Source: an uncultured Oscillospiraceae bacterium (lineage in GTDB: Bacteria > Bacillota > Clostridia > Oscillospirales > Acutalibacteraceae). From it: DNA of 42,765 nucleotides. Location of the stretch: the NCBI GenBank assembly GCA_902490145.1, contig CABUCT010000001.1:1-42765 (forward strand), in the 5' to 3' direction. Below are positions 4,810-33,377 of the stretch, one piece after another. A model generated the notes under the pieces. The model did not search any database. It saw nothing but the letters and a program-made list of their open reading frames with translations, and was not told the origin of the DNA. The first letter of the stretch is position 1; every line of letters begins with the position of its first letter. Both the position numbers and the translations under genes were made by a program.

Positions 4810-5807
4810 GACGTCCTCTCCTTTTCTGATTTAACTTCATATATCTTAAGACCGTACTGCCCCTTAACTCGGCAGTTTTTACCCATTGTTTCAAGTTTTT
4901 TAAGATTGGATTTTTTTTGCCCCGTCATTTTTGAAATGCATGCAGGATTAACAAACAATGTGAAATTTCCCGTGTCCTGTTTTAAAACTTCCAGTGCATT
5001 TTTTAAATAAATTTCGCTTTCGCAAAGCTCTCTGAACGCGGGATGGTAAGGACCTGCAAGGAAATTTTTCTCAACATCAGCCGATGAATGAAGCCCGAGT
5101 TTTATTACCCTGATGCCGTTTGATTCAAAAAATTCCAAAAGTGCTGAACAAAGCTTTATTGTTTCGGGAAGGGTTGGGGGAGAGTATTTTTTATCTTCAA
5201 AAAGCTTTCCGAGAAGAGTGTTTTTAAGGGTAATGGCGGGATAAATCCGCACCGTTTGGGGATTTAGATTTAAAATTGCTTTGGCAGTGTCAAAATCCTT
5301 TTGAGCATCGCTTTTGTAAAGCCCTGTCATCATTTGAAGTCCAAGTTCAAAACCCATGTTTTTTATAAGCTTTGATGCCACTGCAACATCTTGTGCAGTG
5401 TGACCCCTCAGATTTTTTGAAAGCACTTCGTCATCCATGCTTTGAGCACCAAGCTCAATGGATGTTACTCCGTATTCAGATAACAGACTGAGTATTTCTT
5501 CGTTTATGGCGTCAGGTCGGGTGGAAACACGAATTCCCCGAACCTGGCCGGACTTTACATATTCATATGCAGCTGATAAAAGCTCAAGCATATATTCTTT
5601 TTCAATGGCAGTAAAGCTTCCGCCGAAAAAAGCGATTTCAGCTGATTTCGCAGAATCTCCAAGGCTTTTTAAAGCCGTTGCAACCGTTATGTCAACGTCT
5701 TTTTTATGTGGAATCGAAGTTTCACCCGTAATAGCATTCTGGTCGCAAAAGCTGCACCGATGCGGGCAACCGACATGCGGCACAAAAATTGAAATATTAG
5801 CACTCAC
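4800..5807 (-). CDS. Radical SAM protein (ELP3/MiaB-like superfamily, function unassigned)
   Basis: 335-aa ORF with an N-terminal CxxxCxxC motif (VGCPHRCSFCDQ). It sits between rnc and smc with a 4-nt overlap to rnc and a 10-nt overlap to smc. Confidence 0.8.
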   Translation of the reverse strand: MSANISIFVPHVGCPHRCSFCDQNAITGETSIPHKKDVDITVATALKSLGDSAKSAEIAFFGGSFTAIEKEYMLELLSAAYEYVKSGQVRGIRVSTRPDAINEEILSLLSEYGVTSIELGAQSMDDEVLSKNLRGHTAQDVAVASKLIKNMGFELGLQMMTGLYKSDAQKDFDTAKAILNLNPQTVRIYPAITLKNTLLGKLFEDKKYSPPTLPETIKLCSALLEFFESNGIRVIKLGLHSSADVEKNFLAGPYHPAFRELCESEIYLKNALEVLKQDTGNFTLFVNPACISKMTGQKKSNLKKLETMGKNCRVKGQYGLKIYEVKSEKERTSCF

Positions 5808-6484
5808 TCGATTATACCCATAAGACGGAGAGCTTCTTTTGCGGCCGCCTGTTCGGCATCTTTTTTGCTTCTGCCTTCTCCGGTCCCAACAAGATTTGAG
5901 TTGATATGAACCTCAACAGTAAATGTTTTATCGTGATCGGGGCCGCATTCCCCGACAAGGGAATAAACCAACTTGTCTTCGGGATTTTGTTGGATAACTT
6001 CTTGAAGATGAGTTTTGAAATCCTTTTCTGCCGCCTTTGTGTGGCGGTCAAGCGACGGCACAACAAATGAAAGAATAAATTTTGAGGCTTCTTCGATTCC
6101 ACCGTCAAGATAAATTGCGGCAATGAGAGCCTCAAAAGCGTCAGCAAGAATTGACGGACGGCTGCGGCCGCCTGTCCCCGACTCGCCGTGGCTCAAAAGC
6201 AGATATTCGCCCAAATTTATTTTTTTTGCAAATTCACAGAGTGTTTTTTCGCAAACTGCCGAAGCCCTGATTCGGGTAAGCTTTCCTTCAGGGAATTTAT
6301 CAAAGGTTTTATAAAGATAGTCGGATACCACGATAGAAAGCACCGAATCTCCCAAAAATTCCAGTCTTTCATTGCACATTTCGGGACGGTGGCTTTCGTG
6401 TGCATAGGATGAATGGGTTATTGCATTTTCAAGAAGGATCTTTTTTTTGAAGGTATAGCCTATCCTTTCCTCAAGCGTTTTCAT
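5804..6484 (-). other. rnc: RNase III domain of the fusion ORF; possible internal start at the ATG 6484..6482
   Basis: The segment begins MKTLEERIGYTF... like a free-standing Rnc. Only a weak purine tract (GTGAAAAGA) lies upstream of this ATG, with no clear SD. Confidence 0.6.
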
Positions 6485-7468
6485 TCTTTTCACTGTAATC
6501 CGGTCTATTGTCCCTGAAGACGCGAATTTCAATGCCTGTCTTACAGCGTTTTTAATAGCCTTAGCATCGGAACTTCCGTGTGCCTTAATAACCGGTTTTG
6601 AAACTCCCATAAGCGGAGCTCCGCCATATTCAGAATAATCCATTAATGATTTTATAGATTTAAAACCGCTTTTTGCCAAAACTGCGGCAATTTTTGTTTT
6701 TATATTTTTCAAGAAAACATTTTTTATCATACGGAAGAAGGTAATGGCGACGCCTTCTGTAAGCTTCAAAACAATGTTTCCTGAAAAACCGTCGGTAACA
6801 AGAACATCGCATTTATTATCCATCACGTCTCTTGCTTCGATATTGCCGACAAAATTAAGTGTAGAATTTTTAAGCAAATCATATGTATCAAGCCTTAGCT
6901 GATCACCTTTGGTGTCCTCAACGCCATTGTTAAGCAGCCCCACACGTGGGTTTTTAATTCCCATAGATAACTCCATATATTTTGAAGCCATGACTCCGAA
7001 AGAAAGAAGCATCTCGGCACGACATTCAGCATTTGCACCTGAGTCGATCAAAAGGAATTTTGATGTGGGAGTGGGGATTATTGTTGCAATAGCAGGACGC
7101 TTGATACCTTTTATGCGTTTTACAATAAATGTTGCTCCAACCACCAATGCACCGGTGCTTCCGGCCGAAACAAATGCGTCTCCTCGACCATCGGAAAGAA
7201 GCTTCAGTCCCACTGCCATTGAGCTGTCGGACTTTTCTTTTAATATTGTTTTAGGATCATCATGCATGTCAAAAATTTGATCAGCATTCTCAATCTCAAT
7301 ATTTTGAAGTGATATTCCGTTTTGTTCGGCACAATTTTGAATTTCGGTTTTATTTCCGGTAAGAATAATATTAATCCCGAATTCTTCAACGGCGGCGGCA
7401 GCTCCTTCCAAAACAGACTTCGGGGCATTGTCCCCGCCAAAAGCGTCTATTATGACTGTGTTTGCCAT
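5804..7468 (-). CDS. In-frame fusion ORF: phosphate acyltransferase PlsX (N-terminal ~328 aa) + ribonuclease III (C-terminal ~226 aa)
   Basis: Single 554-aa ORF with no in-frame stop. The N-terminal part is PlsX-like (DAFGGDNAP, FVSAGSTGA, TDGFSGNI). The C-terminal part is RNase III (ERLEFLGDSVL signature, a dsRBD with KDAEQAAAKEAL). Confidence 0.85.
   Translation of the reverse strand: MANTVIIDAFGGDNAPKSVLEGAAAAVEEFGINIILTGNKTEIQNCAEQNGISLQNIEIENADQIFDMHDDPKTILKEKSDSSMAVGLKLLSDGRGDAFVSAGSTGALVVGATFIVKRIKGIKRPAIATIIPTPTSKFLLIDSGANAECRAEMLLSFGVMASKYMELSMGIKNPRVGLLNNGVEDTKGDQLRLDTYDLLKNSTLNFVGNIEARDVMDNKCDVLVTDGFSGNIVLKLTEGVAITFFRMIKNVFLKNIKTKIAAVLAKSGFKSIKSLMDYSEYGGAPLMGVSKPVIKAHGSSDAKAIKNAVRQALKFASSGTIDRITVKRMKTLEERIGYTFKKKILLENAITHSSYAHESHRPEMCNERLEFLGDSVLSIVVSDYLYKTFDKFPEGKLTRIRASAVCEKTLCEFAKKINLGEYLLLSHGESGTGGRSRPSILADAFEALIAAIYLDGGIEEASKFILSFVVPSLDRHTKAAEKDFKTHLQEVIQQNPEDKLVYSLVGECGPDHDKTFTVEVHINSNLVGTGEGRSKKDAEQAAAKEALRLMGIIE
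6485..7468 (-). other. plsX: PlsX domain of the fusion ORF
   Basis: Residues 1-328 have full PlsX length. An SD (AAGGAAGGAG) precedes the ATG at 7468, 20 nt after the prfA stop. Confidence 0.8.
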
Positions 7469-11757: not shown

Positions 11758-11804
11758 TTTCACAGTAAAACACCAAAGTTTTGTTATACTGTTTTACTGT
11801 GAAA
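11758..11804. repeat. 15-bp perfect inverted repeat (hairpin) downstream of copA
   Basis: TTTCACAGTAAAACA (11758-11772) pairs with TGTTTTACTGTGAAA (11790-11804) across a 17-nt loop. No immediate T-run follows. Confidence 0.5.
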
Positions 11805-11813
11805 TAACTTTTT

Positions 11814-11857
11814 AAAACCGCAAAGCCTTCGGTATTACCGAAGGCTTTGCGGTTTAA
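11814..11857. terminator. Bidirectional rho-independent terminator shared by copA and the phage head module
   Basis: About 20-bp near-perfect palindrome AAACCGCAAAGCCTTCGGTA / TACCGAAGGCTTTGCGGTTT. It is flanked by an A-run on the left and a T-run on the right. Confidence 0.75.
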
Positions 11858-11858
11858 T

Positions 11859-12293
11859 TTAAACAATATATCGTTTTTCAATTTCAAGAAATCCGGTCAG
11901 CAAGAATGCTTTTTCGTCTCTTTTATAGGAAAGATCTCCGCATTTTACTGAAGTGAATTTATAGGTGCTAACATTTTCAAAAAACATTTCACCTATACGG
12001 CTGAATATATCATAACACTTATATCCTTCCATAGAGTCGGGAACATAAACATCAAATCTGACGCAAATATTGCAATCCCGATTATAAAGCATAGTAGACG
12101 GATTGTCTTCGGAATAAACCGGGGCGATCCTATTTTCAACCGAGTTTTCAAGTCCCACCGCGACTGTCGGCTTTGACATGGGAAGCGGCTTCTTTTTTCC
12201 TGAAAATCCGAAAACGACTCTTATATCGCTAAAATTTTCGTCGTTTTCAAGCTTTCTTTTAATAGTTGAAAGATAGTTGTTAAATTTGATCAT
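11859..12293 (-). CDS. Phage hypothetical protein (candidate neck/head-completion protein by position)
   Basis: 144-aa ORF that overlaps the upstream ORF by 14 nt. It is the last gene before the terminator. No motif recognised. Confidence 0.55.
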   Translation of the reverse strand: MIKFNNYLSTIKRKLENDENFSDIRVVFGFSGKKKPLPMSKPTVAVGLENSVENRIAPVYSEDNPSTMLYNRDCNICVRFDVYVPDSMEGYKCYDIFSRIGEMFFENVSTYKFTSVKCGDLSYKRDEKAFLLTGFLEIEKRYIV

Positions 12294-12648
12294 CTTGTGT
12301 CTCCTTTACTACGGAGCGGAGTATTGCCCAGTTATAAATAACTTCTCCGCTTACTACTACCTTTTCTTTTTTTACAAAGAAAAATTCAGCTCCATCCATG
12401 TGAAGGCGAAGGTTATCGTCAAAATCCCATACTTCGACATTGGACGGTCCAATATAAAGGTAGTGAGATTGATCAATATATCCGGCACGTGATCGAACGC
12501 CGTCGAGGTACATTTTATTTTTGTACCTCAGCGGCTGAACGAAGGCTTTGAAATAATCCGAAATATTTTCTTCGGTGGTTGAAAGACGAACATTGCTTCC
12601 GTATTGGTTGATAAATTTATCAATTTTACTTTTAGTTAATTTCAGCAT
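12280..12648 (-). CDS. Phage hypothetical protein (candidate head-closure/adaptor by position)
   Basis: 122-aa ORF with a 7-nt overlap to the upstream ORF. It lies two genes downstream of the capsid gene. Confidence 0.55.
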   Translation of the reverse strand: MLKLTKSKIDKFINQYGSNVRLSTTEENISDYFKAFVQPLRYKNKMYLDGVRSRAGYIDQSHYLYIGPSNVEVWDFDDNLRLHMDGAEFFFVKKEKVVVSGEVIYNWAILRSVVKETQDDQI

Positions 12649-13010
12649 TGTATCGCCACAAATTCAAAGTCTCCATTCTTCATAAGACGGCTTATGCGTT
12701 TTAAAGCTTCATCCCGCAGCTGTCGTGATGCCGAAATACGTTCGGAAGCTGAGTCTCTGATAGACAAATCTCCTGCCTTAAAAGAGGTGTTGCCGTCAAA
12801 TGATGAACTTATAAGAACATATTCATAAAATGCACATGCAGCAGCGGCATAAGTCAAAGAACTCATGTTATTTGAAATATCGCAGTCCTCCTTCAGGTCG
12901 GCAGAAATACTATCAGCAGCTGAGCGACAGGTATCTATCCATTTTATAGCATCCTCTTTTTCAAGACCTGTAAGAGACAGAAAAATGTCAAAAACCAGCA
13001 TAAGATCCAT
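12642..13010 (-). CDS. Phage hypothetical protein (candidate head-tail connector by position)
   Basis: 122-aa acidic helical ORF starting 6 nt after the capsid gene stop. Size and position are typical of gp6-like connectors. Confidence 0.55.
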   Translation of the reverse strand: MDLMLVFDIFLSLTGLEKEDAIKWIDTCRSAADSISADLKEDCDISNNMSSLTYAAAACAFYEYVLISSSFDGNTSFKAGDLSIRDSASERISASRQLRDEALKRISRLMKNGDFEFVAIQC

Positions 13011-13016
13011 AGAGGC

Positions 13017-14018
13017 TTAACCCTCATTTGTAACAACGTTAACGAGTTTTTTAACCGAATTATCAATGATTTTTGAGAAACCTGCGATAGATGTTATAGT
13101 TGCCCTTTCAAGCTGACGATCAATAAGTCGATCGCTGTCAACTTCAATATCAGAAGCCACTACCATTTCAAGAGCATAATTCTTGTCAAATGCTATTATA
13201 CTGTTTGTACTGTTTCGTGCGTTGATAATCTTAAATCCCAGATTTGTATCAAATCCGTGGTTATTTCCGAATTTAAAACCGAAATCGGGATCTTGGAATG
13301 CTGACATACTCAGCATTTGAGCAATAACATCAGGGGACATAATCACAGTGCCCATTTCATATGGTGCAAGTGCTTTCCAAAGATTCACAAAATCAGTGAA
13401 AAGAATTTTTGCATTTGAAGTGCGGGTAACCTCTCCGGCATCCTTCGCCAAAACGCTTATTGCATCGTCAAACTGCTGGGATGCAATATGAGCACCGATC
13501 TGTTTCAATGCTACAGTGAAAAGGTCAAGGCGTTGGAACTTAAGAGATTCATATGATGCAACAAGCATTCTTCCGTGCTTTTTAAGATTTACAAGCTTGT
13601 CCTTGATTTTGATGCTGGTTTCGGGAATAGCAGTGCCTTCCTCAACTTCACTTAAGTTAAGATCAGAATCAGCAGGAGTACTTATAATACTGCGGTAATC
13701 CATGCTGTTGATGTGAGTGGTGGTTGCAACAATCTGAGAAAGCAAATCGTAACCGATAAATCCGCTTTTTACCGAACGGGTAAGATATTCGGGGAAGAGT
13801 GCTGCAGATGAAGAAGTAGAAAAGAACTTTTCCACTGTGTCTGATGAAGGACCTGAAACCTTAATATCAAAACGTTTAAGCTGACGCTGATAAGCATCAA
13901 GACCTGCAAGAGGAGTGTCGGCGTAATTTTCCGACGGGTCAATAGATTCAAGAGCGGCGGTAATACCGCCTTTAACATTGTACATCCCTTTTTCAAGTGT
14001 AATATTTTCGTAAGACAT
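13017..14018 (-). CDS. Phage major capsid protein (presumed HK97 fold)
   Basis: 333-aa ORF directly after the protease/scaffold gene. Size and position fit a major capsid protein; the family was not verified. Confidence 0.7.
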   Translation of the reverse strand: MSYENITLEKGMYNVKGGITAALESIDPSENYADTPLAGLDAYQRQLKRFDIKVSGPSSDTVEKFFSTSSSAALFPEYLTRSVKSGFIGYDLLSQIVATTTHINSMDYRSIISTPADSDLNLSEVEEGTAIPETSIKIKDKLVNLKKHGRMLVASYESLKFQRLDLFTVALKQIGAHIASQQFDDAISVLAKDAGEVTRTSNAKILFTDFVNLWKALAPYEMGTVIMSPDVIAQMLSMSAFQDPDFGFKFGNNHGFDTNLGFKIINARNSTNSIIAFDKNYALEMVVASDIEVDSDRLIDRQLERATITSIAGFSKIIDNSVKKLVNVVTNEG

Positions 14019-14032
14019 AAAAACAACCTTTC

Positions 14033-15055
14033 TTAAATAATAAATTTTGTGTTTGTGGAATTTTCATTTTGTTCTTTAACAGCATCAAGCTGTCTTGCAG
14101 GGGGGAAAAATTTAGCCGTTCTTTTTTCAAAAGCCTTTTTCAAAGCTGAAAGCTGATCGAAATCAAGATTGCTTGTTAACTTTTCAAAAAATGAGACCCC
14201 AAGTTCCGGCTCGGCAATACCTCCGAGGCGTGATACCTCTTTTTTAATAACATCAAGCTGTTTTTTGCCTGCTTCGGCAAATTCTTTAAGCTCGTTTATA
14301 TAACTGTAAAGTGCATTAGCCTCATCTTTTTCAAGCGAAACATTTCCTTCATTCAGAGATTTTATGATATCCTCTCTGTTCAACTTTTCAAATCCTCCTT
14401 TTTTATTGCAATTAAATGCTTTGACCACACCTGCCTTCGGCTGAGCGGGAACGGCGACAAAGCTCCATTCATAAGCGTCAGTCGGATCGCTGAGTACATG
14501 GTGGCAAAGCTGTTTAACACCGTCTTTGCGATAAAATCTGCCTTTCTTGTGTTCACAATGAGAAGTACGCATATCAGCCCCGCAAACCGAGCAGTGTACT
14601 GAGCTGACAGAGCAGCCCACACTGACCTCTTTTTTGATGCCCGCATCAATTTCAAGAATAATATCCTTATTTCTGATGCTATTGGGCATATAGGCACGAG
14701 CCTTCAAACGAACATAAGGGTCGCCTCTTTTTGTTGTTTGACCTTCAACCCTTTCGACCTCACATTCAAAAATTCTTGCGACCTGATCTCGGCCTTTCAT
14801 TGAATGGTCAAAAATACCTGTTTTCCCCACAAAAAGAGTGGCAAGTTTTTGCAGCATATCATCGCTGAACCGTTCAAAGTCTCTGTCAACTTCGTTGTCG
14901 CAAAGGATCACCGAAAAGACAAAAACTTCTTCGGGAGACAGTATTCTTCGGGAAAGCTTGTTTATTTTTTCAAGCTCCTGTTCGGTAGGAGTGCCGGAAA
15001 CATTTGACACAAATCCTTCCTTCATTAAATCAATCCTTTCATATAAAGGCAGCAA
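14033..15055 (-). CDS. Prohead protease (HK97/S78-like) with a C-terminal scaffold-like coiled-coil region
   Basis: 340-aa ORF with protease-like blocks GKTGIFDHS, EVSVGCSV and EWSFVAVPAQP. A Cys/His cluster (CSVCG...HCEH) is inserted. The C-terminal ~130 aa are helical and K/E-rich. The ORF opens with TTG at 15055; the ATG at 15025 has a better SD. Confidence 0.7.
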   Translation of the reverse strand: MLPLYERIDLMKEGFVSNVSGTPTEQELEKINKLSRRILSPEEVFVFSVILCDNEVDRDFERFSDDMLQKLATLFVGKTGIFDHSMKGRDQVARIFECEVERVEGQTTKRGDPYVRLKARAYMPNSIRNKDIILEIDAGIKKEVSVGCSVSSVHCSVCGADMRTSHCEHKKGRFYRKDGVKQLCHHVLSDPTDAYEWSFVAVPAQPKAGVVKAFNCNKKGGFEKLNREDIIKSLNEGNVSLEKDEANALYSYINELKEFAEAGKKQLDVIKKEVSRLGGIAEPELGVSFFEKLTSNLDFDQLSALKKAFEKRTAKFFPPARQLDAVKEQNENSTNTKFII

Positions 15056-15073
15056 TAAATCAAAATAAGAATG

Positions 15074-16240
15074 TTACTGCCGGTTTAAATTTTGTTCTAT
15101 CTGTTTTGCCTGCATGCGATAAAGCTGAGCTTTAGCCAGTTCTACCTCATCCTGTAGTGAAATGTTTTCAAAATCAACTTCAACTTCCGGATCATATCCG
15201 TTAAGCATAAGCCACATACGGCAAATCTTGCGGATCGCAGGCATAATAATTCTTCTGTATCCCCAAATCTCACTTGTGAGCATGTCGGATTGCTGGGCGG
15301 ACATCCGTTCAGTGGAACTCCATGAAAGTCCGAGCATAAACGGAGGAATACCAAGCCGTGCAACAATTTGCTCAAGCATATGATGAACAGGAATCTCGCA
15401 GTCAAGTATCTGACTGTCGGAGCCTATAACCTTTATCTGCACATCTCCCACTGCCACAAAATCGCTGACTTTGCCGCTGGCGTTGTCACGCATAGCTTTT
15501 GACCATTGTTCGGCGATCTGCTGTGCACGGTCTTTTGCAAAGGTGCGGTCGGCTGAATCATTTGACGGTTTGTAAATGACCGAGTATCTGAGGTTCCCCG
15601 CCCGTTCAAAATTAACTCTGATAGTATCAAATATTTTAGTCAGCACCTGAGTTACGAATGGCAGACTTTTAAGCAGAGAATTACCGCAGATTTGTCCTGC
15701 ACGGGGGTTCAAGGCACTTGTAACAAGAAACTGAGGATATTTGACCGGTTTTGCTTCACCGGCACATCGTGTAAAATACGAAAGCCCTCCGTTTTTTTCA
15801 TTGCGACTGATTTCAATGCAGTCAAGAGGAGCATTATATAAAGCCGCTATGGTGTTTCCCGAAACAGACGGCACGATCTCGCCTACTGCTGTCCCGTACA
15901 TAAGAAGCTGATCCAAATGCTGTGCCGCAAAGGCTTCTATTCCCGACATTGAATCTCCGACCGGAACGGTCTCAAGAAAATGATCCAGTTCTTTTTGAGC
16001 AGATTTGTCACGGCATACGGCTGTTATTCCGCCGGATAAAGAAACAATTTTTGAAAGAGCGGCATCTACTATCGGTACACCCTCTCGAATTGAATCATAA
16101 AGCCGATATTCCGGACGGCAAAGCGGGATATACCTGTCCAGTGCCGAAAACATCACGGATTTTTCACGTGGAATCTGCAATGCAGTTGTCTTTGATTGCG
16201 GCTCAGTCTGTTTTCGCTTAAAAAAATCAAATGGTTTCAT
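15074..16240 (-). CDS. Phage portal protein
   Basis: 388-aa ORF between terL and the protease, preceded by the SD AAGGAG. Size and order are typical of HK97-type portals. Confidence 0.75.
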   Translation of the reverse strand: MKPFDFFKRKQTEPQSKTTALQIPREKSVMFSALDRYIPLCRPEYRLYDSIREGVPIVDAALSKIVSLSGGITAVCRDKSAQKELDHFLETVPVGDSMSGIEAFAAQHLDQLLMYGTAVGEIVPSVSGNTIAALYNAPLDCIEISRNEKNGGLSYFTRCAGEAKPVKYPQFLVTSALNPRAGQICGNSLLKSLPFVTQVLTKIFDTIRVNFERAGNLRYSVIYKPSNDSADRTFAKDRAQQIAEQWSKAMRDNASGKVSDFVAVGDVQIKVIGSDSQILDCEIPVHHMLEQIVARLGIPPFMLGLSWSSTERMSAQQSDMLTSEIWGYRRIIMPAIRKICRMWLMLNGYDPEVEVDFENISLQDEVELAKAQLYRMQAKQIEQNLNRQ

Positions 16241-16327
16241 TCTGTTCTCCTTATAAAAAAATATCTATATAAAATGAAATTTCATACAATGTATGTACAG
16301 CAGGTAATAATTCCTGCTTTTTGTTTT

Positions 16328-17587
16328 TTACCGTTCGACCGAAACCGCTGCAAAATCGTCCTGTTCACGATAAAGCACCGTAGATACAAAATATCTTATA
16401 TCATCCATTGCGTGGTCATTTTCTTTTATGGGTTTGTCTTTTACACTGCCGCTGTCCCATCTGTAAAGTCCGAATTCCCGGATGGTATCAGCACATTTTT
16501 TAGAAATCACAATTCTATTCTCTCTGAGTGCATCTGCAACAAGACGAATACCGTCTGCCACATTGTTTTTTGCAGGAATGACCTTGAACCGTGCGTGGCG
16601 TCGTATACAGGTTATAAAAGAAGCAGCTGAAGGGTCACAAATTACCGAAATAATGTTTCGTGTTCCTGCAAGTGATTCAAGTGCGTCATAATATTCCTCG
16701 TCTGTTTTTTGAACTCCGTGTTTTCTGGAGGAATAATAGTATTCATCAATTCGGTATGCTATTTTGCCTTTTATTCCCCAAAGGCCCATTGAGGTCGGGT
16801 TCACCGTCCCGTAATCGCAGGAGATATAATATTCGTCATATCCGCAAGTTTCCAGAACTTCTGTATGCTTTTCTTCCGAAAAACCCTGATAGACAAGTCC
16901 TTCCGCAGCCACCCATTTTCCTAAAATGAACCGTTCATAAAAAGCCCCTGTGTAAAGACTTTGATAACGCCTGCGTATCTCAGGGGAAAGGGAGGGATTG
17001 TCGTCCATTGTAAAATGAAGATAAAGGGCATTTTTCTCATCTGTTTGTTTTATCCAAGTAGTGTAAAACCAGTGATGAGGATGTTCAGGATTGCAGTTAA
17101 ACCAAAATTTTGATCCATTAACCGAACATCTTGCCAGCGTTTGCTCCACAAAAGAACGAGGCATAAGAGCTACTTCATCAAGAAGTGCTCCCGAAAGGGT
17201 CATACCCTGAATAAGTGCCGCTGAAGATTCGTCTCTTCCTCCGAAAAAATAAAAGCGGTTAGTGTTTGTCCCCCGCCGTACTTCAAGATAATTTTTGGAA
17301 TGTTTGATGTTACATTCAAATCCGATCTCTCTGAGTTCAGCTGACAGGGGCAAAATAATGTTCCTTTTGAGTGCAGTCACGGTTTTTCCGCAGATCGCAA
17401 AATCCGAATTGTTAAATTGCCAAAAAGCCCATAAAACGAAAGAAACCGACATACAAAGGGTTTTTCCGGATCTCACCGCACCGTCACATATAACGGCATC
17501 GCAGTCCTTGTACTTGCTGTTATTGCACCACCATGTTAAAACAGCGAGCTGCTTTTTTGAAAAAGGTGCATATTTCATATGTCGCAC
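16328..17587 (-). CDS. Phage terminase large subunit
   Basis: 419-aa ORF with Walker A (DGAVRSGKT), Walker B-like LLDE, and a C-terminal nuclease-like region. It overlaps terS by 13 nt. Confidence 0.9.
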   Translation of the reverse strand: MRHMKYAPFSKKQLAVLTWWCNNSKYKDCDAVICDGAVRSGKTLCMSVSFVLWAFWQFNNSDFAICGKTVTALKRNIILPLSAELREIGFECNIKHSKNYLEVRRGTNTNRFYFFGGRDESSAALIQGMTLSGALLDEVALMPRSFVEQTLARCSVNGSKFWFNCNPEHPHHWFYTTWIKQTDEKNALYLHFTMDDNPSLSPEIRRRYQSLYTGAFYERFILGKWVAAEGLVYQGFSEEKHTEVLETCGYDEYYISCDYGTVNPTSMGLWGIKGKIAYRIDEYYYSSRKHGVQKTDEEYYDALESLAGTRNIISVICDPSAASFITCIRRHARFKVIPAKNNVADGIRLVADALRENRIVISKKCADTIREFGLYRWDSGSVKDKPIKENDHAMDDIRYFVSTVLYREQDDFAAVSVER

Positions 17588-18063
17588 TCTGTGCCGTTCA
17601 AAGCATCTGCTCCTTTAATAATTGCATCATAAAACGATTGAACAGGAGCGTCTTCTTGATTGGACGAAATTTCAGACAGCTTTTCCAAAGCCTTTACCCT
17701 GTCAAAAAATTTTATTTCCATTCCGCCGCCTTTTGGTCTTTTGATCTCAGATATGCTGAAAAGATCAAGCGTTTCAAGCTGTTCATCGGTGATATCTTCG
17801 GCAAAAAGAAGCTTCACCGCATCGGTCACAGAACCAAATGCAACTCTTTTGAGTCCACTTGCCGCATCCACTGACGACAGTTCCATTTTACTTTTCAGCC
17901 TTTTTATTTCCGAAACAGCGGCTTCTTTCTGCAAAATTTTAAGTCCGGCTCTTTCGGGGAATATACGAAATCCGGCACGTGACGCTGCTTCCCTGAGATT
18001 ATTTGTAAGGGCGAAATCGGCACAAAATTGTTTTTCTTTGGGTGTTAATTTATAATCTTTCAT
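17575..18063 (-). CDS. Phage terminase small subunit
   Basis: 162-aa ORF. The N-terminal HTH block LTPKEKQFCADFALTNNLREAASRAGF is typical of Terminase_2-type TerS. Confidence 0.85.
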   Translation of the reverse strand: MKDYKLTPKEKQFCADFALTNNLREAASRAGFRIFPERAGLKILQKEAAVSEIKRLKSKMELSSVDAASGLKRVAFGSVTDAVKLLFAEDITDEQLETLDLFSISEIKRPKGGGMEIKFFDRVKALEKLSEISSNQEDAPVQSFYDAIIKGADALNGTECDI

Positions 18064-18503
18064 TCAATCCCTCCTATTTCAGCAGACAAAAAAAGAACAA
18101 GTTGCACGAAATCATACAACCTGAAAACATAAACCGATTAAATTTTTCATATTTTGATATAGGTTTAAGCCAGATAAGGATAAAAGATTTTGTAAACAAG
18201 ATTAATCTTATGCTTGTTCAAAAGCCTTGGAATACTGCAATATTCTTTCGTTTTTCAACCTTGACTAAGAAAATTTTTTGTCTTACAAAACTGTTTTTTA
18301 TCTGAAATGAATAAATTTTTGCTGAAAGACAAAATAAAAACTACTTTTAAGCTGGTGCTTGACGAGCATTTTTACATTGTATTTCACAAAAGAACTTCAT
18401 TTTCAGACTTTTCTCCCTATTTGGATTAAATCTTGATTTGCGGTAATTTAACATTTCAAACAGTTGCCGTGAAAATATATATTGGTTTTATGGGGGCATA
18501 TAA

Positions 18504-19733
18504 ATGCGAAAAATAATTTGCTTTGTATTGGCATTTTCGGTTGCAGTAACCTACTCGGTATGTTTTGCCGACGAGGCTGAAGTTTCCGCACCGGCAACTG
18601 AATATGTAAGTGAGGGAATGTATGATAACTTTGAAACTGCGTCGGTACTCAGTGAAGCAGTTCAGACCGATGAGATTGAAATCAATGCAACCTGCGGTGT
18701 ACTTGCAGAAGTGTCGACCGGTAAAATTCTGTATGCAAAAAATGAAAATGAAACACGTTCGCCTGCTTCTATCACAAAAATCATGACGTTGCTTTTGTGT
18801 GTTGAGGCGATTGACTCGGGAAGGCTTGCTCTTACTGATAAGGTAACGGCGAGTGAACACGCAAGTTCCATGGGCGGATCTCAAATTTGGTTAAAGCCCG
18901 GCGAAACGATGACCGTGGATGAGATGCTTAAAGCCGTAACAGTCGCATCTGCGAATGACGCGGCGGTAGCACTAGCTGAGCATATCGGCGGAAGTGAAGA
19001 AGGTTTCGTTATGATGATGAACAGCAGAGCCAAAGAACTTTCGATGGATTCAACATGTTTTAAAAATGCATGTGGGCTGGATGTCGACGGACATTTCAGC
19101 ACAGCGGCAGATATAGCGAAAATGTCGTGTGAGCTTTTGAAACATGATTTAATAAAAAATTATTCGACCATTTGGATGGACTATCTTCGTGACGGAAAAA
19201 CTCAGCTTGTAAACACCAATAAGCTTGTGCGTTTTTATGAAGGAGCCACAGGACTTAAGACCGGCACTACCGATAAAGCAGGATACTGCGTGGCAGCATC
19301 TGCTCAAAAAAACGGCATGGAGCTTGTTGCGGTAATTCTGGACGGCGAAACAAGCGATAAGAGGTTTTCGTCGGCAAAGGCATTGCTTAATTACGGATTC
19401 GGTGCATTCGAGCTTACGAAAAAAACACTTGACGAAACTGCTTTCCAAACCGTGATGATAAACCATGGTTTAGAGAGTACAGCAGACATAACCTTTGATA
19501 GGGAAAAAAGTTTTTTGCTTAAAAAAGGAAAGGCAAATAATATTGAGATAAAGATAAATATGGCCGAAAGCGTAAATGCACCTGTTTCAGCAGGTCAGTT
19601 GCTTGGGAAAGTCAGTTTCCTGCTCGATGGCGAAATAATTGGAGAAAGTGATGTGTTGGCGGCAAAGGCAGTAGATAAAATAACTTTTAAAACGGCGTTT
19701 TGCAGATTGCTGAAAGAATTTTTTAAAACCTAA
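18504..19733 (+). CDS. D-alanyl-D-alanine carboxypeptidase (class C low-molecular-weight PBP)
   Basis: 409-aa ORF with a signal peptide, SxxK (SPASITK), SxN (ASAND) and KTG (LKTGTT), plus a PBP5-type C-terminal domain. Confidence 0.9.
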   Translation: MRKIICFVLAFSVAVTYSVCFADEAEVSAPATEYVSEGMYDNFETASVLSEAVQTDEIEINATCGVLAEVSTGKILYAKNENETRSPASITKIMTLLLCVEAIDSGRLALTDKVTASEHASSMGGSQIWLKPGETMTVDEMLKAVTVASANDAAVALAEHIGGSEEGFVMMMNSRAKELSMDSTCFKNACGLDVDGHFSTAADIAKMSCELLKHDLIKNYSTIWMDYLRDGKTQLVNTNKLVRFYEGATGLKTGTTDKAGYCVAASAQKNGMELVAVILDGETSDKRFSSAKALLNYGFGAFELTKKTLDETAFQTVMINHGLESTADITFDREKSFLLKKGKANNIEIKINMAESVNAPVSAGQLLGKVSFLLDGEIIGESDVLAAKAVDKITFKTAFCRLLKEFFKT

Positions 19734-23470: not shown

Positions 23471-25063
23471 TTATTTTCTTGCGTAGTTCGGAAGAAGCTT
23501 CGGTGATTTCACATCTGATTTAATACCGGCATCACTAAGCTCTTTCTCAAAACGTTCAACATGGTCAAGGGTGAGTTTTCCGACTTTTACACTCTTTGCT
23601 TTTTCAGAAGCGTTTTTACCCGCATTGCGGCCGAAAACGATAATATCAAGCAATGAATTTCCCATAAGACGGTTACGTCCGTGGATTCCTCCTACAGCCT
23701 CACCGGCAACAAAGAGGTTTTCAACACCGCTCTGACCATTGTCTGAAATATCGATACCACCGTTTTGGTAATGAAGTGTCGGATAAACAAGAATAGGCTC
23801 TTTGCGGATATCGATGCCATATTTACCGAACATTCTCATCATTGCAGGGATGCGTTTTTCAATAGTACCCTCTCCGTTTTTAAGCTCGATCATAGGAGTA
23901 TCAAGCCATACGGCTTTTCCTTGAGGAGTTTCGACGCCATTTTTACGGTCTGAACATTCGCGGATTATAGAAGCTGCCGAAACATCGCGGGTCTCAAGCG
24001 GATGCATAAATACTTCACCATTTACGTTGACCAATTTTGCACCGAGAGAACGAACCTTTTCGGTAACGAGAGCACCGAAAATCTGTTCAGGGAAAGCAGC
24101 TCCGGTGGGATGATATTGAAGTGTATCAGCATAAAGGAGCTTTGCACCAACGCGATAAGCCAGTACCAAGCCATCAGCCGTTGCACCGTAATGATTAGAA
24201 GTCGGGAATCCCTGATAGTGCAGACGTCCCGCACCACCGGTTGCGATGATAACGGTCTTTGCCTTCGCCACAAGAATCTCTCCGGTTTCCATGTTCATGA
24301 GAACAGCACCGGAAGCCTTGCCGTTTTCATCAAGAATAATTTCGATAGCAGCGGTGAAATCAACCACAGGAATCTCACGGTTAAGAACTTCATCGCGAAG
24401 CGTTCTCATGATTTCGGCACCTGAATAGTCCTTTGCAGCATGCATACGTTTTCTTGAAGTTCCGCCGCCGTGGGTGGTAATCATAGTTCCGTCTGGAGCT
24501 TTATCAAATTCAACACCCAAATTGTTGAGCCATTGAATCGCTTCAGGAGCCTCGTTTACCAATTTGTAAAGAAGTTCCGGCTTTGCAGCAAAATGTCCGC
24601 CGCCGAAAGCATCAAGATAATGCTGTGCAGGGCTGTCGTTTGGCTTGTCTGCAGCCTGGATTCCACCCTCAGCCATCATGGTGTTTGCGTCACCGATACG
24701 AAGCTTTGTAACAATCATTACTTTTGCTCCGTTGTTATCGGCCTCAATAGCAGCAGAAGAACCTGCACCGCCGCCACCGATGATAAGAACATCAACATCA
24801 TAATCAGGATTTTCAAGATCAATGTCTTTGTCAATAACACGACTATGACCCTGAAGCAAAGCGGCAAGCTCTGTCGGAACTTTTTCACCCTTGTTGGGAC
24901 CGACTGTGAGAGTTGCAAATTCCTCCTTTTTATAGTCGGGATGATATGTAGCAAGGAGGGTTTCTTTTTCCTCAGCGGTCATTCTTCTCGGTTCAAACTC
25001 AGCGTTCTTTACGCGTGCATCTTCAACCTTTTTTATGGATTTTTGTAATTCACTTGGATACAT
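23471..25063 (-). CDS. Soluble fumarate reductase/succinate dehydrogenase-family flavoprotein (FrdA/TfrA-like)
   Basis: 530-aa ORF with an FAD fold (DVLIIGGGGAGSSAA), an HPTG active-site block (LQYHPTG) followed by LVTE..R. The covalent-FAD His position reads Asn (DANTMMAEGG versus RSHTVAAEGG). SD AAGGAGG. Confidence 0.8.
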   Translation of the reverse strand: MYPSELQKSIKKVEDARVKNAEFEPRRMTAEEKETLLATYHPDYKKEEFATLTVGPNKGEKVPTELAALLQGHSRVIDKDIDLENPDYDVDVLIIGGGGAGSSAAIEADNNGAKVMIVTKLRIGDANTMMAEGGIQAADKPNDSPAQHYLDAFGGGHFAAKPELLYKLVNEAPEAIQWLNNLGVEFDKAPDGTMITTHGGGTSRKRMHAAKDYSGAEIMRTLRDEVLNREIPVVDFTAAIEIILDENGKASGAVLMNMETGEILVAKAKTVIIATGGAGRLHYQGFPTSNHYGATADGLVLAYRVGAKLLYADTLQYHPTGAAFPEQIFGALVTEKVRSLGAKLVNVNGEVFMHPLETRDVSAASIIRECSDRKNGVETPQGKAVWLDTPMIELKNGEGTIEKRIPAMMRMFGKYGIDIRKEPILVYPTLHYQNGGIDISDNGQSGVENLFVAGEAVGGIHGRNRLMGNSLLDIIVFGRNAGKNASEKAKSVKVGKLTLDHVERFEKELSDAGIKSDVKSPKLLPNYARK

Positions 25064-25075
25064 AAAACAACCTCC

Positions 25076-25753
25076 TTATTTCTCGATCTCTCTGGTATTA
25101 TAGAGTTCTTTCATTTCTTCAATAGGTTTCTGCATAAGGTCCTCGAGAAGCTCCTTGAAATCGCCGTTTTTGATTTCTTTCACTCTGTTTTCAAGATGCT
25201 CTGTTTTGGGAGCAAGATATTTACCATTAAGTCTGCGGGCAAGCATTGCCACCTGCGGATGAGAAATACCTGCGGGGCAGCGTGAAGAACAAACACCGCA
25301 CATTACGCAGTCAAAGGATTCCTCAGCACATTTTTCGTATTCACCTCTCTGAGCATAGGCGATATACTGCATAACATTGAGTCCCTGAGTACAGCTCTTT
25401 GTGCAGGCATTGCAGCCGATACAGCTGTAAATTTCGGGATAAAGCTGCATCATAATCTGCTCGCTTGGGGAAATCTTTTCAATATCATAAACCTGTTTAA
25501 TAAGCGGGAAAAAGGGGAGTGTTGCAACATACATATTGTCCTCAACTTGTGTTGAGCAGGCGAGACAAACCTTGAGTTCGCGATCACCCTTTATGCGATA
25601 TATAGTGGCACAGGCTCCGCAAAAGCCGTTACGGCATCCGCAGCCTCTCACCAGCTGATATCCGGCATATTCCATAGCACCCATGATAGTCAGGCTTGAC
25701 GGGACTTCGTATTTTTTGCCCATCAGAAATACATTTACCATTTTCTGTTCCAT
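25076..25753 (-). CDS. FrdB/SdhB-like iron-sulfur subunit
   Basis: 225-aa ORF. It has an N-terminal 2Fe-2S pattern (CGCRNGFCGAC...C). Two further cluster motifs follow: CIGCNACTKSC and CVMCGVCSSRCP. Confidence 0.8.
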   Translation of the reverse strand: MEQKMVNVFLMGKKYEVPSSLTIMGAMEYAGYQLVRGCGCRNGFCGACATIYRIKGDRELKVCLACSTQVEDNMYVATLPFFPLIKQVYDIEKISPSEQIMMQLYPEIYSCIGCNACTKSCTQGLNVMQYIAYAQRGEYEKCAEESFDCVMCGVCSSRCPAGISHPQVAMLARRLNGKYLAPKTEHLENRVKEIKNGDFKELLEDLMQKPIEEMKELYNTREIEK

Positions 25754-25768
25754 ATTTCAAAACCTCTC

Positions 25769-26599
25769 TTAATATTCATCTGGCATCTCGTCGATTTGGT
25801 CACAGCGGAAGACCGGACCGTCTTTGCAAACGTATTTAGAGCCGATGTTGCAGCGGCCGCATTTGCCGACACCGCATTTCATTTTGAGTTCCATTGTGGT
25901 GAAAACCTGAGTTTTGTCAAACCCGAGTTCCATAAGACCTGCAAGGGTAAACTTAATCATAATAGGCGGACCGCATATGATAACGGTTTTGTTTGTGTCA
26001 AAGCCAAGTTCCTTGACATAGTTCGGAACAAAACCGACGTGTCCGTCCCAGCCTTCCTGTTCACGGTCAATGGTGAGATGAACATTTATGCCGTCCTCGT
26101 TGCTCCATTCACTTATGATTTCATCATAATCCACAAGGTCATCCTTACTTCTTGAACCATAAACAATGTCAACAGTGCCATAGTTTTCACGGTTATCACG
26201 GACATAATTAATAACCGAACGAAGCGGAGCAAGACCGATGCCGCCGGCAACAAAGAGCAGATCTTTGCCCTTAAATGCAGTATCAACAGGGAAGCCGTTT
26301 CCATAAGGTCCGCGAATGGTGATTTGCTGCCCAACATCCATTTGGTGAAGCCATTCGGTAAGACATCCGCATTTTTTGATGCTGAATTCCATAAACTCAG
26401 TGTTTGTGGGAGATGAAGTAATTGAGAACATAGCCTCTCCGACACCCGGAATAGAGAGCATAGCACATTGACCGGGAATATGCTCAAAACATTTTCCTCC
26501 GTCAAGGGAATTGACGCGGAAGGTTTTTACATCGGGAGTGTCGATGCGAACATCTGTAACAACACCGATGTGCGGAATAAGAGTTTCGTTAACAGACAT
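25769..26599 (-). CDS. FAD/NAD(P)H-binding oxidoreductase with a C-terminal 2Fe-2S (FlxA / HydG / AsrB / PyrK-like)
   Basis: 276-aa ORF with the nucleotide-binding block LLFVAGGIGLAPLRS. The C-terminal motif is CGVGKCGRCNIG...CKDGPVF. Confidence 0.8.
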   Translation of the reverse strand: MSVNETLIPHIGVVTDVRIDTPDVKTFRVNSLDGGKCFEHIPGQCAMLSIPGVGEAMFSITSSPTNTEFMEFSIKKCGCLTEWLHQMDVGQQITIRGPYGNGFPVDTAFKGKDLLFVAGGIGLAPLRSVINYVRDNRENYGTVDIVYGSRSKDDLVDYDEIISEWSNEDGINVHLTIDREQEGWDGHVGFVPNYVKELGFDTNKTVIICGPPIMIKFTLAGLMELGFDKTQVFTTMELKMKCGVGKCGRCNIGSKYVCKDGPVFRCDQIDEMPDEY

Positions 26600-27624
26600 T
26601 ATTTTTTACCCCCTAACTTTTTGATAACCTTTGCAATATTCATAGAAATAGGACACTTTGCAACACATCTTCCGCATCCGACGCAGGAATAAAGTCCTTC
26701 ATTGTTTGCCGGATAGTACACAAGCTTATGCATAAAGCGTTGACGGAAGCGTTCAAGCTGGCTTGTGCGGGGGTTTCCGTGAGCCATTTTGGTAAAGTCG
26801 GAGTACATGCAGGAATCCCAGCAGCGATATCTTTGAACACCGTGACCGGTGTCATAGTCGCGGATATCATAGCACTGGCAAGTCGGACAAACAAATGTGC
26901 AGGTTCCGCATCCGATACATGATTCCGAAAGAGTTGCCCATTCGGGAGAATTGAATTTTTCAAGCATAACTTCTTCGCTGCCAAAGCCTTCAAGCGACAG
27001 ATCGGAGAGAGGAAGCTTTTTCATAATTTCGGAAGTTGCTTTTTTCTGTGTTTCTACAGCAGAATTATCGCAAGCTTCAAACAATCCGGAAATTTTATTT
27101 TCCAAAGCCTTACCCTTTTCGGTTATTGCTTCGAAATAAAGAGCATCATCGGTAATATAGGTTACGGCATCGCCTTTAGGATCGGTTGCATCAATGCCGA
27201 ACACGTTGCAAAAACAGGTTTCTTCAGGAGCTGAACAAGCGAGAGTGACAACAGTGCCTTTTTTGCGGCGGTTTTCATAATATGAATCAACCGGATCACT
27301 GAGGAAAACACGGTCAAGCACGTCAAAACTCTTTGCATCGCAGGCACGAACACCAAAAACTACAAAATCTTTGGTTTCATCGCGGTTGTCAATAACCTCA
27401 ATCTTTTTACCCTCGGTTTTGAAAGCCATAAGATTTTCGCTTTGCGGGAAGAAAAGATCCTTCGGAGAGCGATTTGTATGAAGAATATCAAGGCGAACCT
27501 TTGAATCAGCATCCCATTTGAAGAAATCAACATTTCCGCTCTTTTCAATCGGAAGATAAAGCTCTTCGTCGGCTGCGATTGTTTCAAATAATGAATTTAA
27601 TTTTTCTTTTGAAATTTTAAGCAT
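26599..27624 (-). CDS. Polyferredoxin-type 4Fe-4S protein (FlxB / AsrA / sulfhydrogenase-beta-like)
   Basis: 341-aa ORF with GVRACD, CIGCGTCTFVCPTCQC and CVGCGRCVAKCP. It overlaps each neighbour by 1 nt. Confidence 0.75.
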   Translation of the reverse strand: MLKISKEKLNSLFETIAADEELYLPIEKSGNVDFFKWDADSKVRLDILHTNRSPKDLFFPQSENLMAFKTEGKKIEVIDNRDETKDFVVFGVRACDAKSFDVLDRVFLSDPVDSYYENRRKKGTVVTLACSAPEETCFCNVFGIDATDPKGDAVTYITDDALYFEAITEKGKALENKISGLFEACDNSAVETQKKATSEIMKKLPLSDLSLEGFGSEEVMLEKFNSPEWATLSESCIGCGTCTFVCPTCQCYDIRDYDTGHGVQRYRCWDSCMYSDFTKMAHGNPRTSQLERFRQRFMHKLVYYPANNEGLYSCVGCGRCVAKCPISMNIAKVIKKLGGKK

Positions 27625-28613
27625 TAGTTGTCGCCTCCTTTATCCGAAACCACAGAGGGCTCAACATCATTTTGAGTGAAGCTGGTGAGTGGGGTGCGGA
27701 CTTCGTCATCAGAACCCGCCTGATATTCACCGTAAAAGCTGTCAATATCTTTGATAAATTTGCGATTAAGCAAATGAAGCGGAATGTTTTGAGGGCAAAC
27801 TCTTGAACACTCTCCGCAGTCGGTGCAGCGACCGGCAACATGGAATGCACGGATAATGTGGAAACAATTTTCTTCGAAGCTGTCAACCGGAGCTTTAGAA
27901 GCAATTCCTGATTCAGCATTGTCAAACACACAGTTTGTGCAGGTACAGGCAGGGCATACATTGCGGCAGGCATTGCAGCGAATGCATTTTGAAAGCTCAC
28001 CTCTCCAAAATTCAAAACGCTCGTCCGGAGTCATGGCTTCAAGTTTCTCAACTATTTCAAAGCGATCGGATTTCCATGAATTATCGGGAGTTTCATCTTT
28101 AACTATAAGTTCATCCTGAACAACGTGGGTGCGGCCTTTGCATACACAGCAGCGATCAAGAAGTGCATCTCTGCGGGAAACCTGTTTGTCACCGTAAAGT
28201 GTATGAACAACGAGCGTGTCTCCATCCTCGTCAATAGATGTAATACCTGTAATCCCCATCTTGCGGAGCTTTTCAACGTCAAGCTTTCCACCGCAGTGAA
28301 TGCCGATAGCATAAATTTTTTCGCGGTCAACGCGATGTTCTTTAATCAGCTGATTTAAGCTGTATGTATCGCATGGTTTAAGGAAAACAGCGGTTTTACC
28401 ATCTTTTTTGGACTCTTTTATGAGATATTTACTGAGATTTGCACCGCAAAATCCATTATACACAAAATCATCGAGCTGATCAGCAGAGGTAAACACAGCA
28501 GGTGTGGGATCATAGAAGAACTCTCCGTTTTTCCAACCGACAACACGAGCTACTTCTCCGGAGGACAAAAGCTCTTGAGCCTTTGATTTCATTCGGTCAA
28601 AGATTTCTTGCAT
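27624..28613 (-). CDS. Polyferredoxin-type 4Fe-4S protein (FlxC-like)
   Basis: 329-aa ORF with LKPCD, CIRCNACRNVCPACTC and CTDCGECSRVCP. A good SD (GGAGG, 7-nt spacing) precedes the ATG at 28613. Confidence 0.7.
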   Translation of the reverse strand: MQEIFDRMKSKAQELLSSGEVARVVGWKNGEFFYDPTPAVFTSADQLDDFVYNGFCGANLSKYLIKESKKDGKTAVFLKPCDTYSLNQLIKEHRVDREKIYAIGIHCGGKLDVEKLRKMGITGITSIDEDGDTLVVHTLYGDKQVSRRDALLDRCCVCKGRTHVVQDELIVKDETPDNSWKSDRFEIVEKLEAMTPDERFEFWRGELSKCIRCNACRNVCPACTCTNCVFDNAESGIASKAPVDSFEENCFHIIRAFHVAGRCTDCGECSRVCPQNIPLHLLNRKFIKDIDSFYGEYQAGSDDEVRTPLTSFTQNDVEPSVVSDKGGDN

Positions 28614-31023: not shown

Positions 31024-31037
31024 TAGCTTTTTCCTCC

Positions 31038-32218: not shown

Positions 32219-32244
32219 AACTCGCTCATTCCTTTCGCAAATTT

Positions 32245-33354: not shown

Positions 33355-33377
33355 ATTTCAGTTTCCTTTTAAGGAAA

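Follow-up and report, generated by a model that had tools for sequence, protein, structure and literature searches.

A conserved head-only phage module of gut Oscillospirales with the anatomy of a gene transfer agent-like element

PBSX of Bacillus subtilis packages random 13-kb pieces of host DNA (PMC12946183). FpGTA of Faecalibacterium prausnitzii (Borodovich et al., Nat Commun 2026) is encoded by a chromosomal head operon and gives rise to ∼40 nm particles that have no visible tail and carry 8.4–8.9 kb of host DNA; its operon II encodes baseplate, fibers, and lysis functions, and many strains are without it (PMC12946183). The "genome" of RcGTA, a gene transfer agent (GTA) of Alphaproteobacteria, is reported to be scattered over several loci (PMC5026251). 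Phage-inducible chromosomal islands of the capsid-forming type (cf-PICIs) are mobile islands of 10–18 kb with integrase, replication, and regulation modules as well as an HNH gene; these islands package themselves, and their adaptor and connector decide which foreign tails bind. GTA-like packaging of host DNA (4–9 kb) in virus-like particles is reported for Ruminococcaceae, Oscillospiraceae, and Christensenellaceae, with a candidate locus named only for Faecalibacterium (PMC12946183), and further candidate clusters in murine Oscillospirales are given in a 2026 preprint (10.64898/2026.07.08.737213). Our literature searches found no description of a PBSX-type head-only family. Here we analyzed an eight-gene module of this kind, located at positions 11859–18063 of a metagenome scaffold of 42,765 bp (contig CABUCT010000001.1; ENA ERZ28634864, sample SAMEA3879571, scaffold_703). 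The whole scaffold is referred to below as the window.

The module consists of eight co-oriented, intact open reading frames (ORFs) on the minus strand, running from 18063 down to 11859 in the order terS, terL, portal, protease-scaffold (g4), major capsid protein (MCP), g6, g7, and g8, and core genes flank it at both ends. We interpret it, with moderate confidence, as an operon for head, neck, and DNA packaging that descends from a PBSX-type phage domesticated long ago, that is, as a vertically inherited GTA-like "viriform" of gut Oscillospirales. Comparison of gene content and divergence among relatives makes domestication and vertical inheritance of the module highly probable. That it makes DNA-filled particles serving DNA exchange or export is a moderately well-supported prediction from the gene set.

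We scanned genome collections at one genome per species. At least 593 species genomes carried the module, and the best 80 were examined in detail. All 80 were metagenome-assembled genomes of gut or rumen Oscillospirales from the families Acutalibacteraceae, Ruminococcaceae, and Oscillospiraceae. The comparison across relatives proposed in an earlier note on this DNA returned a colinear module with core flanks: g1 to g7, and g8 where detectable, were colinear in every sufficiently long locus among these 80 genomes, and the module was flanked by core genes in all loci examined. The relative whose portal is 65% identical to that of the window (loci L001–L004) has this eight-gene, head-only set with core flanks, and its neighbor is again the PBP5 (penicillin-binding protein 5) gene. 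In a second relative (L005; portal 56% identical) the eight-gene head-only module likewise lies between core genes, in a context unrelated to that of the window. The module was also present on 80 contigs of IMG/VR (L091–L170).

The loci showed three layouts. In the window and its clade the module is head-only, with a g8 of ∼144 aa (layout A). Most Acutalibacteraceae are head-only as well; they have an additional ORF of ∼112 aa ahead of the capsid gene, and their last gene encodes ∼280 aa (layout A'). In layout B the eight genes are followed by a 126-aa ORF and then by a baseplate in the order of PBSX XkdP to XkdU: a LysM protein, a hub, two small proteins, Baseplate_J, a Mu gp48-like protein, and a 150-aa protein (L021, at 14634–19429; also L019, L026, L027, L030, L049–L051, L064, L066, and many IMG/VR loci). 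A census of the informative loci, IMG/VR included, gave 55 head-only loci and 51 with head plus XkdP-U-like baseplate. In layout B the baseplate comes directly after the head genes, with no sheath, tube, or tape-measure gene between, and its particle would be a myovirus-derived one that has a baseplate but apparently no tail tube. The Baseplate_J proteins of layout B were <55% identical to one another. Genes for sheath, tube, tape measure, integrase, replication, or lysis were not seen beside the module at any informative locus, and none of the head-only loci had baseplate genes within 10 kb. When 139 representative proteins from the flanks of 45 head-only loci were scanned against PHROG, no phage family recurred.

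The last gene of layout A' records how a baseplate was lost. Its N-terminal half is g8-like, and in its C-terminal half it is homologous to the gene that ends the baseplate cluster of layout B (L040, at 14088–14930; likewise L013, L018, L033, L029, L014, L017, and L093). This fusion indicates that the ∼4.3 kb between the two genes was deleted in frame, with the baseplate lost and the heads kept. The fusion gene has an omega of 0.13, in keeping with purifying selection. Judged from these genes, the head-only arrangement is a derived and durable state and no transient wreck.

Selection was estimated as the ratio of nonsynonymous to synonymous substitution rates (dN/dS, Nei-Gojobori). All eight genes gave values of about 0.02–0.30 in the window's clade and in Acutalibacteraceae pairs, the latter compared at unsaturated dS of 0.4–1.0. 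The portal reached 0.05–0.11 in the 40 species pairs listed, terL 0.02–0.11, the MCP gene 0.03–0.12, g6 0.11–0.30, and g7 0.05–0.32.

Vertical descent was assessed with neighboring genes. The divergent upstream neighbor is mgtE in 31 loci, head-only and head-plus-baseplate ones alike (MgtE identity 52–95%). In 28 loci the pairwise identities of MgtE and portal rose and fell together (Mantel r 0.87; 0 of 2000 permutations as high) over similar ranges, 48–98% for MgtE and 50–93% for the portal. The PBP5 neighbor common to the window, L001/L006, and L007 was 57–60% identical, and the module proteins were 53–72% identical. The co-divergence of MgtE with the portal, together with the similar divergence of PBP5, fits descent with the chromosome and not recent transfer.

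The products of the first five genes were assigned mainly by family models and structure prediction. TerS (17575–18063, minus strand; 162 aa) matches PF03592 (E 2.8e-11, profile positions 1–127 of 141) and phrog_51. It was found in all sufficiently long related loci at 36–56% identity and keeps the N-terminal helix-turn-helix (DNA-binding) region of the Terminase_2 family. TerL (16328–17587, minus strand) belongs to the PBSX family of large terminase subunits (TIGR01547, E 6.6e-62, 210 bits against a cutoff of 105), with further matches to Terminase_6N, Terminase_3, and Terminase_6C. Its translation contains a Walker A motif (GAVRSGKT), a Walker B motif (LLDE), and the nuclease aspartates. In the public gene calls, terL begins at ATG 17578, giving a 4-nt ATGA overlap with terS, and this is likely the true start (416 aa). 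The portal protein (15074–16240, minus strand; 388 aa) matches phrog_30703 (E 3e-129) and, weakly, PF04860; it has more than 5400 database homologs, the closest being 72% identical. Three portals of the family (P0016, P0024, and P0255) are called "serine/threonine protein phosphatase" at NCBI, which looks like a propagated misannotation. The MCP (13017–14018, minus strand; 333 aa) is of the HK97 type by PF25209 (E 1.3e-12) and phrog_3922 (E 6.9e-71), with a weak match to TIGR01554; a search of NCBIfam gave no match to the N4-gp56 family.

The fourth ORF, g4 (14033–15055, minus strand; 340 aa), matches phrog_16951, a family of unknown function. Public gene calls start it from ATG 15025, and the family alignment, in which M11 is nearly invariant, agrees; the likely product is 330 aa. 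The AlphaFold2 (AF2) model, built with 51 homologs, had a pLDDT of 87.6 and consisted of a beta-rich domain (residues 20–215) followed by long helices (243–316). Foldseek searches of BFVD with this model returned a prohead serine protease (E 1.4e-21) and proteins annotated as PBSX XkdF (E 1e-8). Its best matches in the PDB were herpesvirus assemblins, all weak and of the same fold. Alignment to HK97 gp4 (hhalign) was not significant overall; in it VSVGC pairs with the catalytic MSVGF motif and SFVAVPAQ..AGV pairs with SVCTFPANEQAGI. Within the family H84, S145, and the four Cys/His residues of an inserted CxxC...CxH zinc ribbon are invariant. The models support a reading of g4 as an XkdF-like prohead serine protease fused to a C-terminal, helical, scaffold-like domain, and the protease-scaffold label of the earlier note holds.

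The structure prediction that the note had recommended was also productive for g8 (11859–12293, minus strand; 144 aa), the last gene of the module, whose model (pLDDT 75) has the tail-terminator or "gateway" fold of neck proteins. In the PDB its Foldseek matches were the PhiTE connector (9cc7_F, E 9e-8) and the E217 neck (8fvh_M), as well as lambda gpU, the SaPI1 neck, and the collars of pyocin and diffocin. The protein g6 (12642–13010, minus strand; 122 aa) is probably a head-tail adaptor, to judge from its position, which is kept across the family, and from weak PHROG matches: phrog_541 (head-tail adaptor) was matched by some members of a pooled set of small ORFs, at best with E 3e-4. No Pfam or PDB sequence match was found for g6. 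The protein g7 (12280–12648, minus strand; 122 aa) is, from its position, probably the head-closure protein (stopper). It is kept in nearly all loci, with P39, Y42, K43, N44, K45, Y105, and W107 nearly invariant, and it had no match in Pfam, PHROG, PDB profile, or hhalign searches. For the window copies of g6, g7, and g8 Pfam and PHROG gave no sequence-family match. PDB profile searches with family alignments of g4, g6, g7, and g8 returned nothing below E 0.1, and hhalign against HK97 gp4, gp6, gp7, gp10, and terminator gave no significant probability, only the gp4 motifs being informative. Pfam and PHROG scans of 85 small-ORF homologs yielded only weak adaptor and scaffold matches.

The 5' leader of the module contains a terminator-like hairpin with a T-run (18088–18123, minus strand), 25 nt before the terS ribosome-binding site. 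On the coding strand it reads CAGGTTGTATG-ATTT-CGTGCAACTTG, followed by TTCTTTTTTT, and it is a slightly degenerate copy of a hairpin of the form GTTGC-N8-12-GCAAC that occurs family-wide. No minus-strand gene lies upstream for it to terminate. Of 70 terS leaders, 19 contained the exact core, GTTGC-N(4-16)-GCAAC, and the other 1.33 Mb of the loci together had 22 copies; with one mismatch allowed the core was present in 28 of 96 leaders. The hairpin occurs in loci with differing upstream neighbors. Invariance of the core in the hairpin alignment follows from the way the alignment was built; the outer stem was not part of the search pattern, and it covaries by compensatory changes (score 0.389, against 0.162 for shuffled alignments; 0 of 500 shuffles as high). 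Rfam gave nothing at the gathering threshold for the whole window and nothing at a permissive threshold for the leader. We regard the hairpin as a candidate attenuator or regulator-binding site of the module; alternatively, it may be a packaging (pac) site. A scan for sigma-70 promoters found no more sites than in shuffled sequence, and no promoter is claimed. As a separate observation, Acutalibacteraceae leaders are without the GTTGC hairpin and share the motif GC.CTTAGGTTGAGAGG-N-CCTCTC-GGAAAGGAG, a small hairpin directly before the ribosome-binding site, ∼20–80 nt upstream of terS (L013, L022, L043, L047, L054–L056, and L058).

From these parts the following course may be proposed. Transcription that reads past the leader hairpin would express the operon. 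The portal would then nucleate a procapsid, with the HK97-type capsid protein assembling around the scaffold domain of g4, and the g4 protease would mature it. TerS and TerL would pump DNA in, and adaptor, stopper, and gpU-like terminator ring would close the portal. These genes are precisely the ones required for building, filling, and sealing a capsid. The most likely product is a small, DNA-filled, neck-capped capsid with no tail of its own. Release would depend on lysis functions encoded elsewhere. Delivery, if any, might use a baseplate or tail from another locus or phage, or DNA uptake after breakdown of the capsid. Particle production, cargo, and the means of switching on are proposed here from anatomy and conservation.

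Several points weigh against this interpretation. The evidence on the module family is genomic, and the search for tail, baseplate, and lysis genes in this genome covered one contig of 42,765 bp. The TerS keeps its DNA-binding region, unlike the TerS of RcGTA and FpGTA, so packaging may be site-specific and not random. A tailless capsid has no obvious route for DNA delivery. The names given to g6 and g7 come from position. Finally, the window's own dS is saturated against its nearest relatives, and what speaks for selection on this copy is the integrity of its ORFs and the conserved catalytic residues.

A sub-variant of the viriform interpretation, which differs from it on whether the particle has its own tail, is a strict split-locus GTA. 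The operon would then be "operon I," and a second locus would give baseplate, fiber, holin, and endolysin, with short-tailed particles injecting DNA. FpGTA in F. prausnitzii is arranged in precisely this way, as two operons separated by 125 kb. Half of the relatives keep the XkdP-U-like baseplate directly downstream, the fold of g8 is one for tail docking, and the lysis genes must sit elsewhere in any case. However, the in-frame deletion that fused g8 in Acutalibacteraceae removed the baseplate, which points to loss and not relocation. The 10-kb surroundings of the head-only loci, as noted above, held no baseplate genes, and operon II of FpGTA itself is absent from 7 of 12 Faecalibacterium strains. 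We consider a second, tail-supplying locus possible but doubtful. The earlier note had suggested a domesticated GTA-like unit with a split locus: the domesticated, GTA-like part is strongly supported by comparative genomics (at least 593 genomes, core flanks, selection, and co-divergence with mgtE). The split-locus part did not emerge from the one contig covered, and in one related lineage the baseplate genes were deleted and not moved.

Purifying selection shows that the module has some function and does not tell which, which leaves room for exaptation to a cell-internal or defensive role. The module might interfere with PBSX-like phages, by competing for tails or by packaging their DNA, or might export protected extracellular DNA. 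Tailless particles cannot inject DNA, and PBSX transfers none of its DNA and acts as a killing particle (PMC12946183). Nevertheless, we find such a role unlikely: the module has no associated defense genes, and the retention of the full packaging and portal-closing set is easier to reconcile with a stable particle filled with DNA than with mere interference.

The packaging gene content of the module (TerS, TerL, portal, protease, capsid, adaptor, and connector) is like that of a cf-PICI. All the cf-PICI packaging components except HNH appear to be present, the adaptor and connector being assigned from their position and fold, and lysis and tail genes are absent. Such islands release tailless capsids that bind free tails later, and the TerS of the module keeps its DNA-binding domain. 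The module could on these grounds be a cf-PICI, or its stripped morphogenesis half as the earlier note had it, making tailless capsids that carry the element itself and pirate the tails of a helper phage. The remaining evidence is against this and makes it very improbable. The window has neither an integrase or recombinase nor a replication module, a regulation module, or an HNH gene; the module measures 6.2 kb against 10–18 kb; core genes abut both of its ends, with no att-like repeats; and the flanks of 45 loci hold no recurrent mobile-element genes. The module also co-diverges with the host chromosome across families rather than moving between species.

A functionless, decaying prophage remnant of a recent deletion would account for a position between core genes without regulators, and prophage remnants are common, but it can be practically dismissed: all eight ORFs are intact despite divergence to 30–72% amino acid identity from the nearest relatives, the eight-gene set recurs in hundreds of species, dN/dS is far below 1, the catalytic residues of protease and terminase are invariant, and the Mantel result argues against recent horizontal spread as the cause of the conservation. 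A very recent deletion, which the earlier note had kept in view, is contradicted by relatives with a 65%-identical portal that carry the same eight genes by the same PBP5 gene. Two findings that it had named as fatal to a functional unit did not materialize: no complete prophage was found at the site among the relatives examined, and dN/dS was nowhere near 1 across the family (about 0.02–0.30, the window's own dS being saturated).

Taken together with the layouts, the viriform interpretation can be extended to a pan-Oscillospirales, PBSX-derived element that shed its tail stepwise, first to head plus baseplate and then to head only, and that has been under selection for as long as the families have diverged. 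Its tailless capsids would be a functional device for DNA export or exchange, possibly with pirated tails and under control of the leader hairpin, and the element would be the genetic basis of the orphan, "GTA-like" packaging of host DNA (4–6 kb) reported from human gut viromes. We offer this extended scenario tentatively.

Most of the details of the locus given in the earlier note could be confirmed. Its eight minus-strand ORFs in canonical order are all present and supported by homology, and no internal stops or frameshifts interrupt them, all eight products aligning with homologs over their full length. When the longest ORFs are taken, the overlaps it gave as 7–14 nt come to 13 nt between terS and terL, 7 nt between g6 and g7, and 14 nt between g7 and g8; the gap between terL and portal is 87 nt, and the other intergenic gaps are 6–18 nt. 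The module does end by a terminator that it shares with copA, at a distance of 3 nt and not 2 nt: beyond the g8 stop lies a perfect 20-bp inverted repeat (11815–11855), between the module and the convergent copA, which we list as a bidirectional terminator common to both. Between the copA stop and the common terminator, at 11758–11804, lies another perfect inverted repeat, whose arms are 15 nt long and whose loop is 17 nt. At the other end, the module starts 440 nt from a divergent core gene, as stated, and this gene encodes a PBP5-type D-Ala-D-Ala carboxypeptidase (18504–19733). A link to sporulation was considered for the adjoining dac-type PBP gene and a spoIIR gene in L001, and no evidence was found for it.

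The rest of the window is housekeeping in content. Domain scans of the 42.8-kb contig found nothing else phage-like, that is, no tail, baseplate, lysis, integrase, replication, or regulation gene, in agreement with the note. All other sizeable ORFs have housekeeping Pfam domains, including FtsY, SMC, radical SAM, PlsX-RNase III, RF1, CsoR, CopA, HtrA, an Hdr/Mvh-like complex, Mdh, fumarase, Rpe, AlaRS, and others. The window has no tRNA genes, and no convincing flanking direct repeats were found as att sites, the best being 20 nt at 80% identity; the note had likewise reported none. At 5804–7468 (minus strand) a 554-aa ORF combines a complete PlsX (residues 5–322) with a complete RNase III/dsRBD (345–549). 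The plsX-(acpP)-rnc genes are apparently fused here with no acpP between, and a real fusion and an assembly frameshift are both conceivable. A long minus-strand operon at 23471–34922 encodes a fumarate-reductase-type FAD-binding flavoprotein, Fe-S and NAD-binding subunits, an Hdr/Mvh-like set (FlpD, CCG domain, and polyferredoxin-flavoprotein), malate dehydrogenase, and a two-subunit fumarase. This operon looks like a fumarate-linked electron-bifurcating module.

The module family bears on the interpretation of public records and of gut DNA packaging. The entries MT835508.1, MT835952.1, and MT836604.1 were deposited as "Bacteriophage sp." from human fecal viromes, and the IMG/VR entries are predicted uncultivated viral genomes (UViGs), mostly of 4–18 kb. 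In the 46.7-kb virome scaffold MT835508.1 (L086) the head-only module lies between genes of the opposite strand, and in all of these records the genes around the module look chromosomal. These three records and IMG/VR L091–L170 are probably fragments of bacterial chromosomes or trimmed islands, with consequences for the annotation of "phage" records that carry the module; the portal names at NCBI described above are a further annotation consequence. Long-read viromics has shown that Ruminococcaceae, Oscillospiraceae, and Christensenellaceae of the gut fill capsids with short random stretches of their chromosomes at high rates, and the locus is known only for Faecalibacterium (PMC12946183). The module family is a candidate locus for many other taxa, with the portal, the capsid protein, and the XkdF-like protease as markers. 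The series from head plus baseplate to head only also bears on what selection keeps a particle that no longer injects DNA.

Compared with the known systems, the module appears to share with cf-PICIs the composition of the packaging module and, as the predicted product, the tailless DNA-filled capsids that cf-PICIs release. It differs in the missing integrase, replication, regulation, and HNH genes of the window and in its vertical inheritance. Like RcGTA it is a vertically inherited, phage-derived structural cluster under purifying selection, without integration or replication genes; the order of the head genes is the same, and both portal and capsid protein are small. The main RcGTA cluster differs in having a complete short siphovirus-type tail, and its CtrA/GafA regulation has no visible counterpart in the window.

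By homology the nearest named system appears to be PBSX, to go by the TerL family model (TIGR01547), the XkdF-type fold predicted for g4, the gene order, and the baseplate of the relatives. In B. subtilis the PBSX genes run xtmA-xtmB-xkdE-xkdF-xkdG-xkdH-xkdI-xkdJ, followed by tail and lysis genes, and the module has the same succession of terS, terL, portal, protease/scaffold, capsid, and three neck genes. The baseplate of its relatives resembles XkdP (LysM), Q (hub), R, S, T (Baseplate_J), and U, and both elements are chromosomal and non-replicating. Unlike PBSX, the window has no sheath, tube, tape-measure, baseplate, fiber, or lysis genes and no Xre/Xpf-type regulators, and even the fuller relatives of the module are without sheath, tube, and tape measure. 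The two elements also differ in host order and in their conserved chromosomal sites.

By biology the nearest system, by analogy, is FpGTA. Both are found in gut Oscillospirales as a chromosomal head/packaging operon without integrase or replication genes, with functions beyond operon I encoded elsewhere or absent, and FpGTA is nearly ubiquitous in its host clade. FpGTA particles, which appear tailless, are backed by electron microscopy, proteomics, and packaged DNA of 8.5 kb, whereas the evidence for the window module is genomic. The proteins are also of another lineage. The FpGTA capsid protein is of the N4-gp56 family, its protease is of the Prp type, and a podovirus tail nozzle is present (proteomics table of PMC12946183); in the window module the capsid protein is of the HK97/PF25209 kind, the protease is a serine enzyme of the XkdF type, and TerL belongs to the PBSX family. 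The FpGTA TerS has no DNA-binding domain, and that of the window keeps it. A direct tie between the two through a "Faecalibacterium" locus (L083) and the cluster accessions was considered and rejected: there was no F. prausnitzii accession, and the FpGTA proteins show the other lineage. As with GTAs, the window contig holds a chromosomal, phage-derived head/packaging cluster without replication, integration, or lysogeny-control genes, and the related loci are alike. Vertical inheritance and long purifying selection are seen across the family, with the integrity of the ORFs and the PBP5 neighbor as the corresponding evidence for the window itself. The module is best filed as a head-only variant of the GTA-like elements of gut Oscillospirales, derived from a PBSX-type phage.

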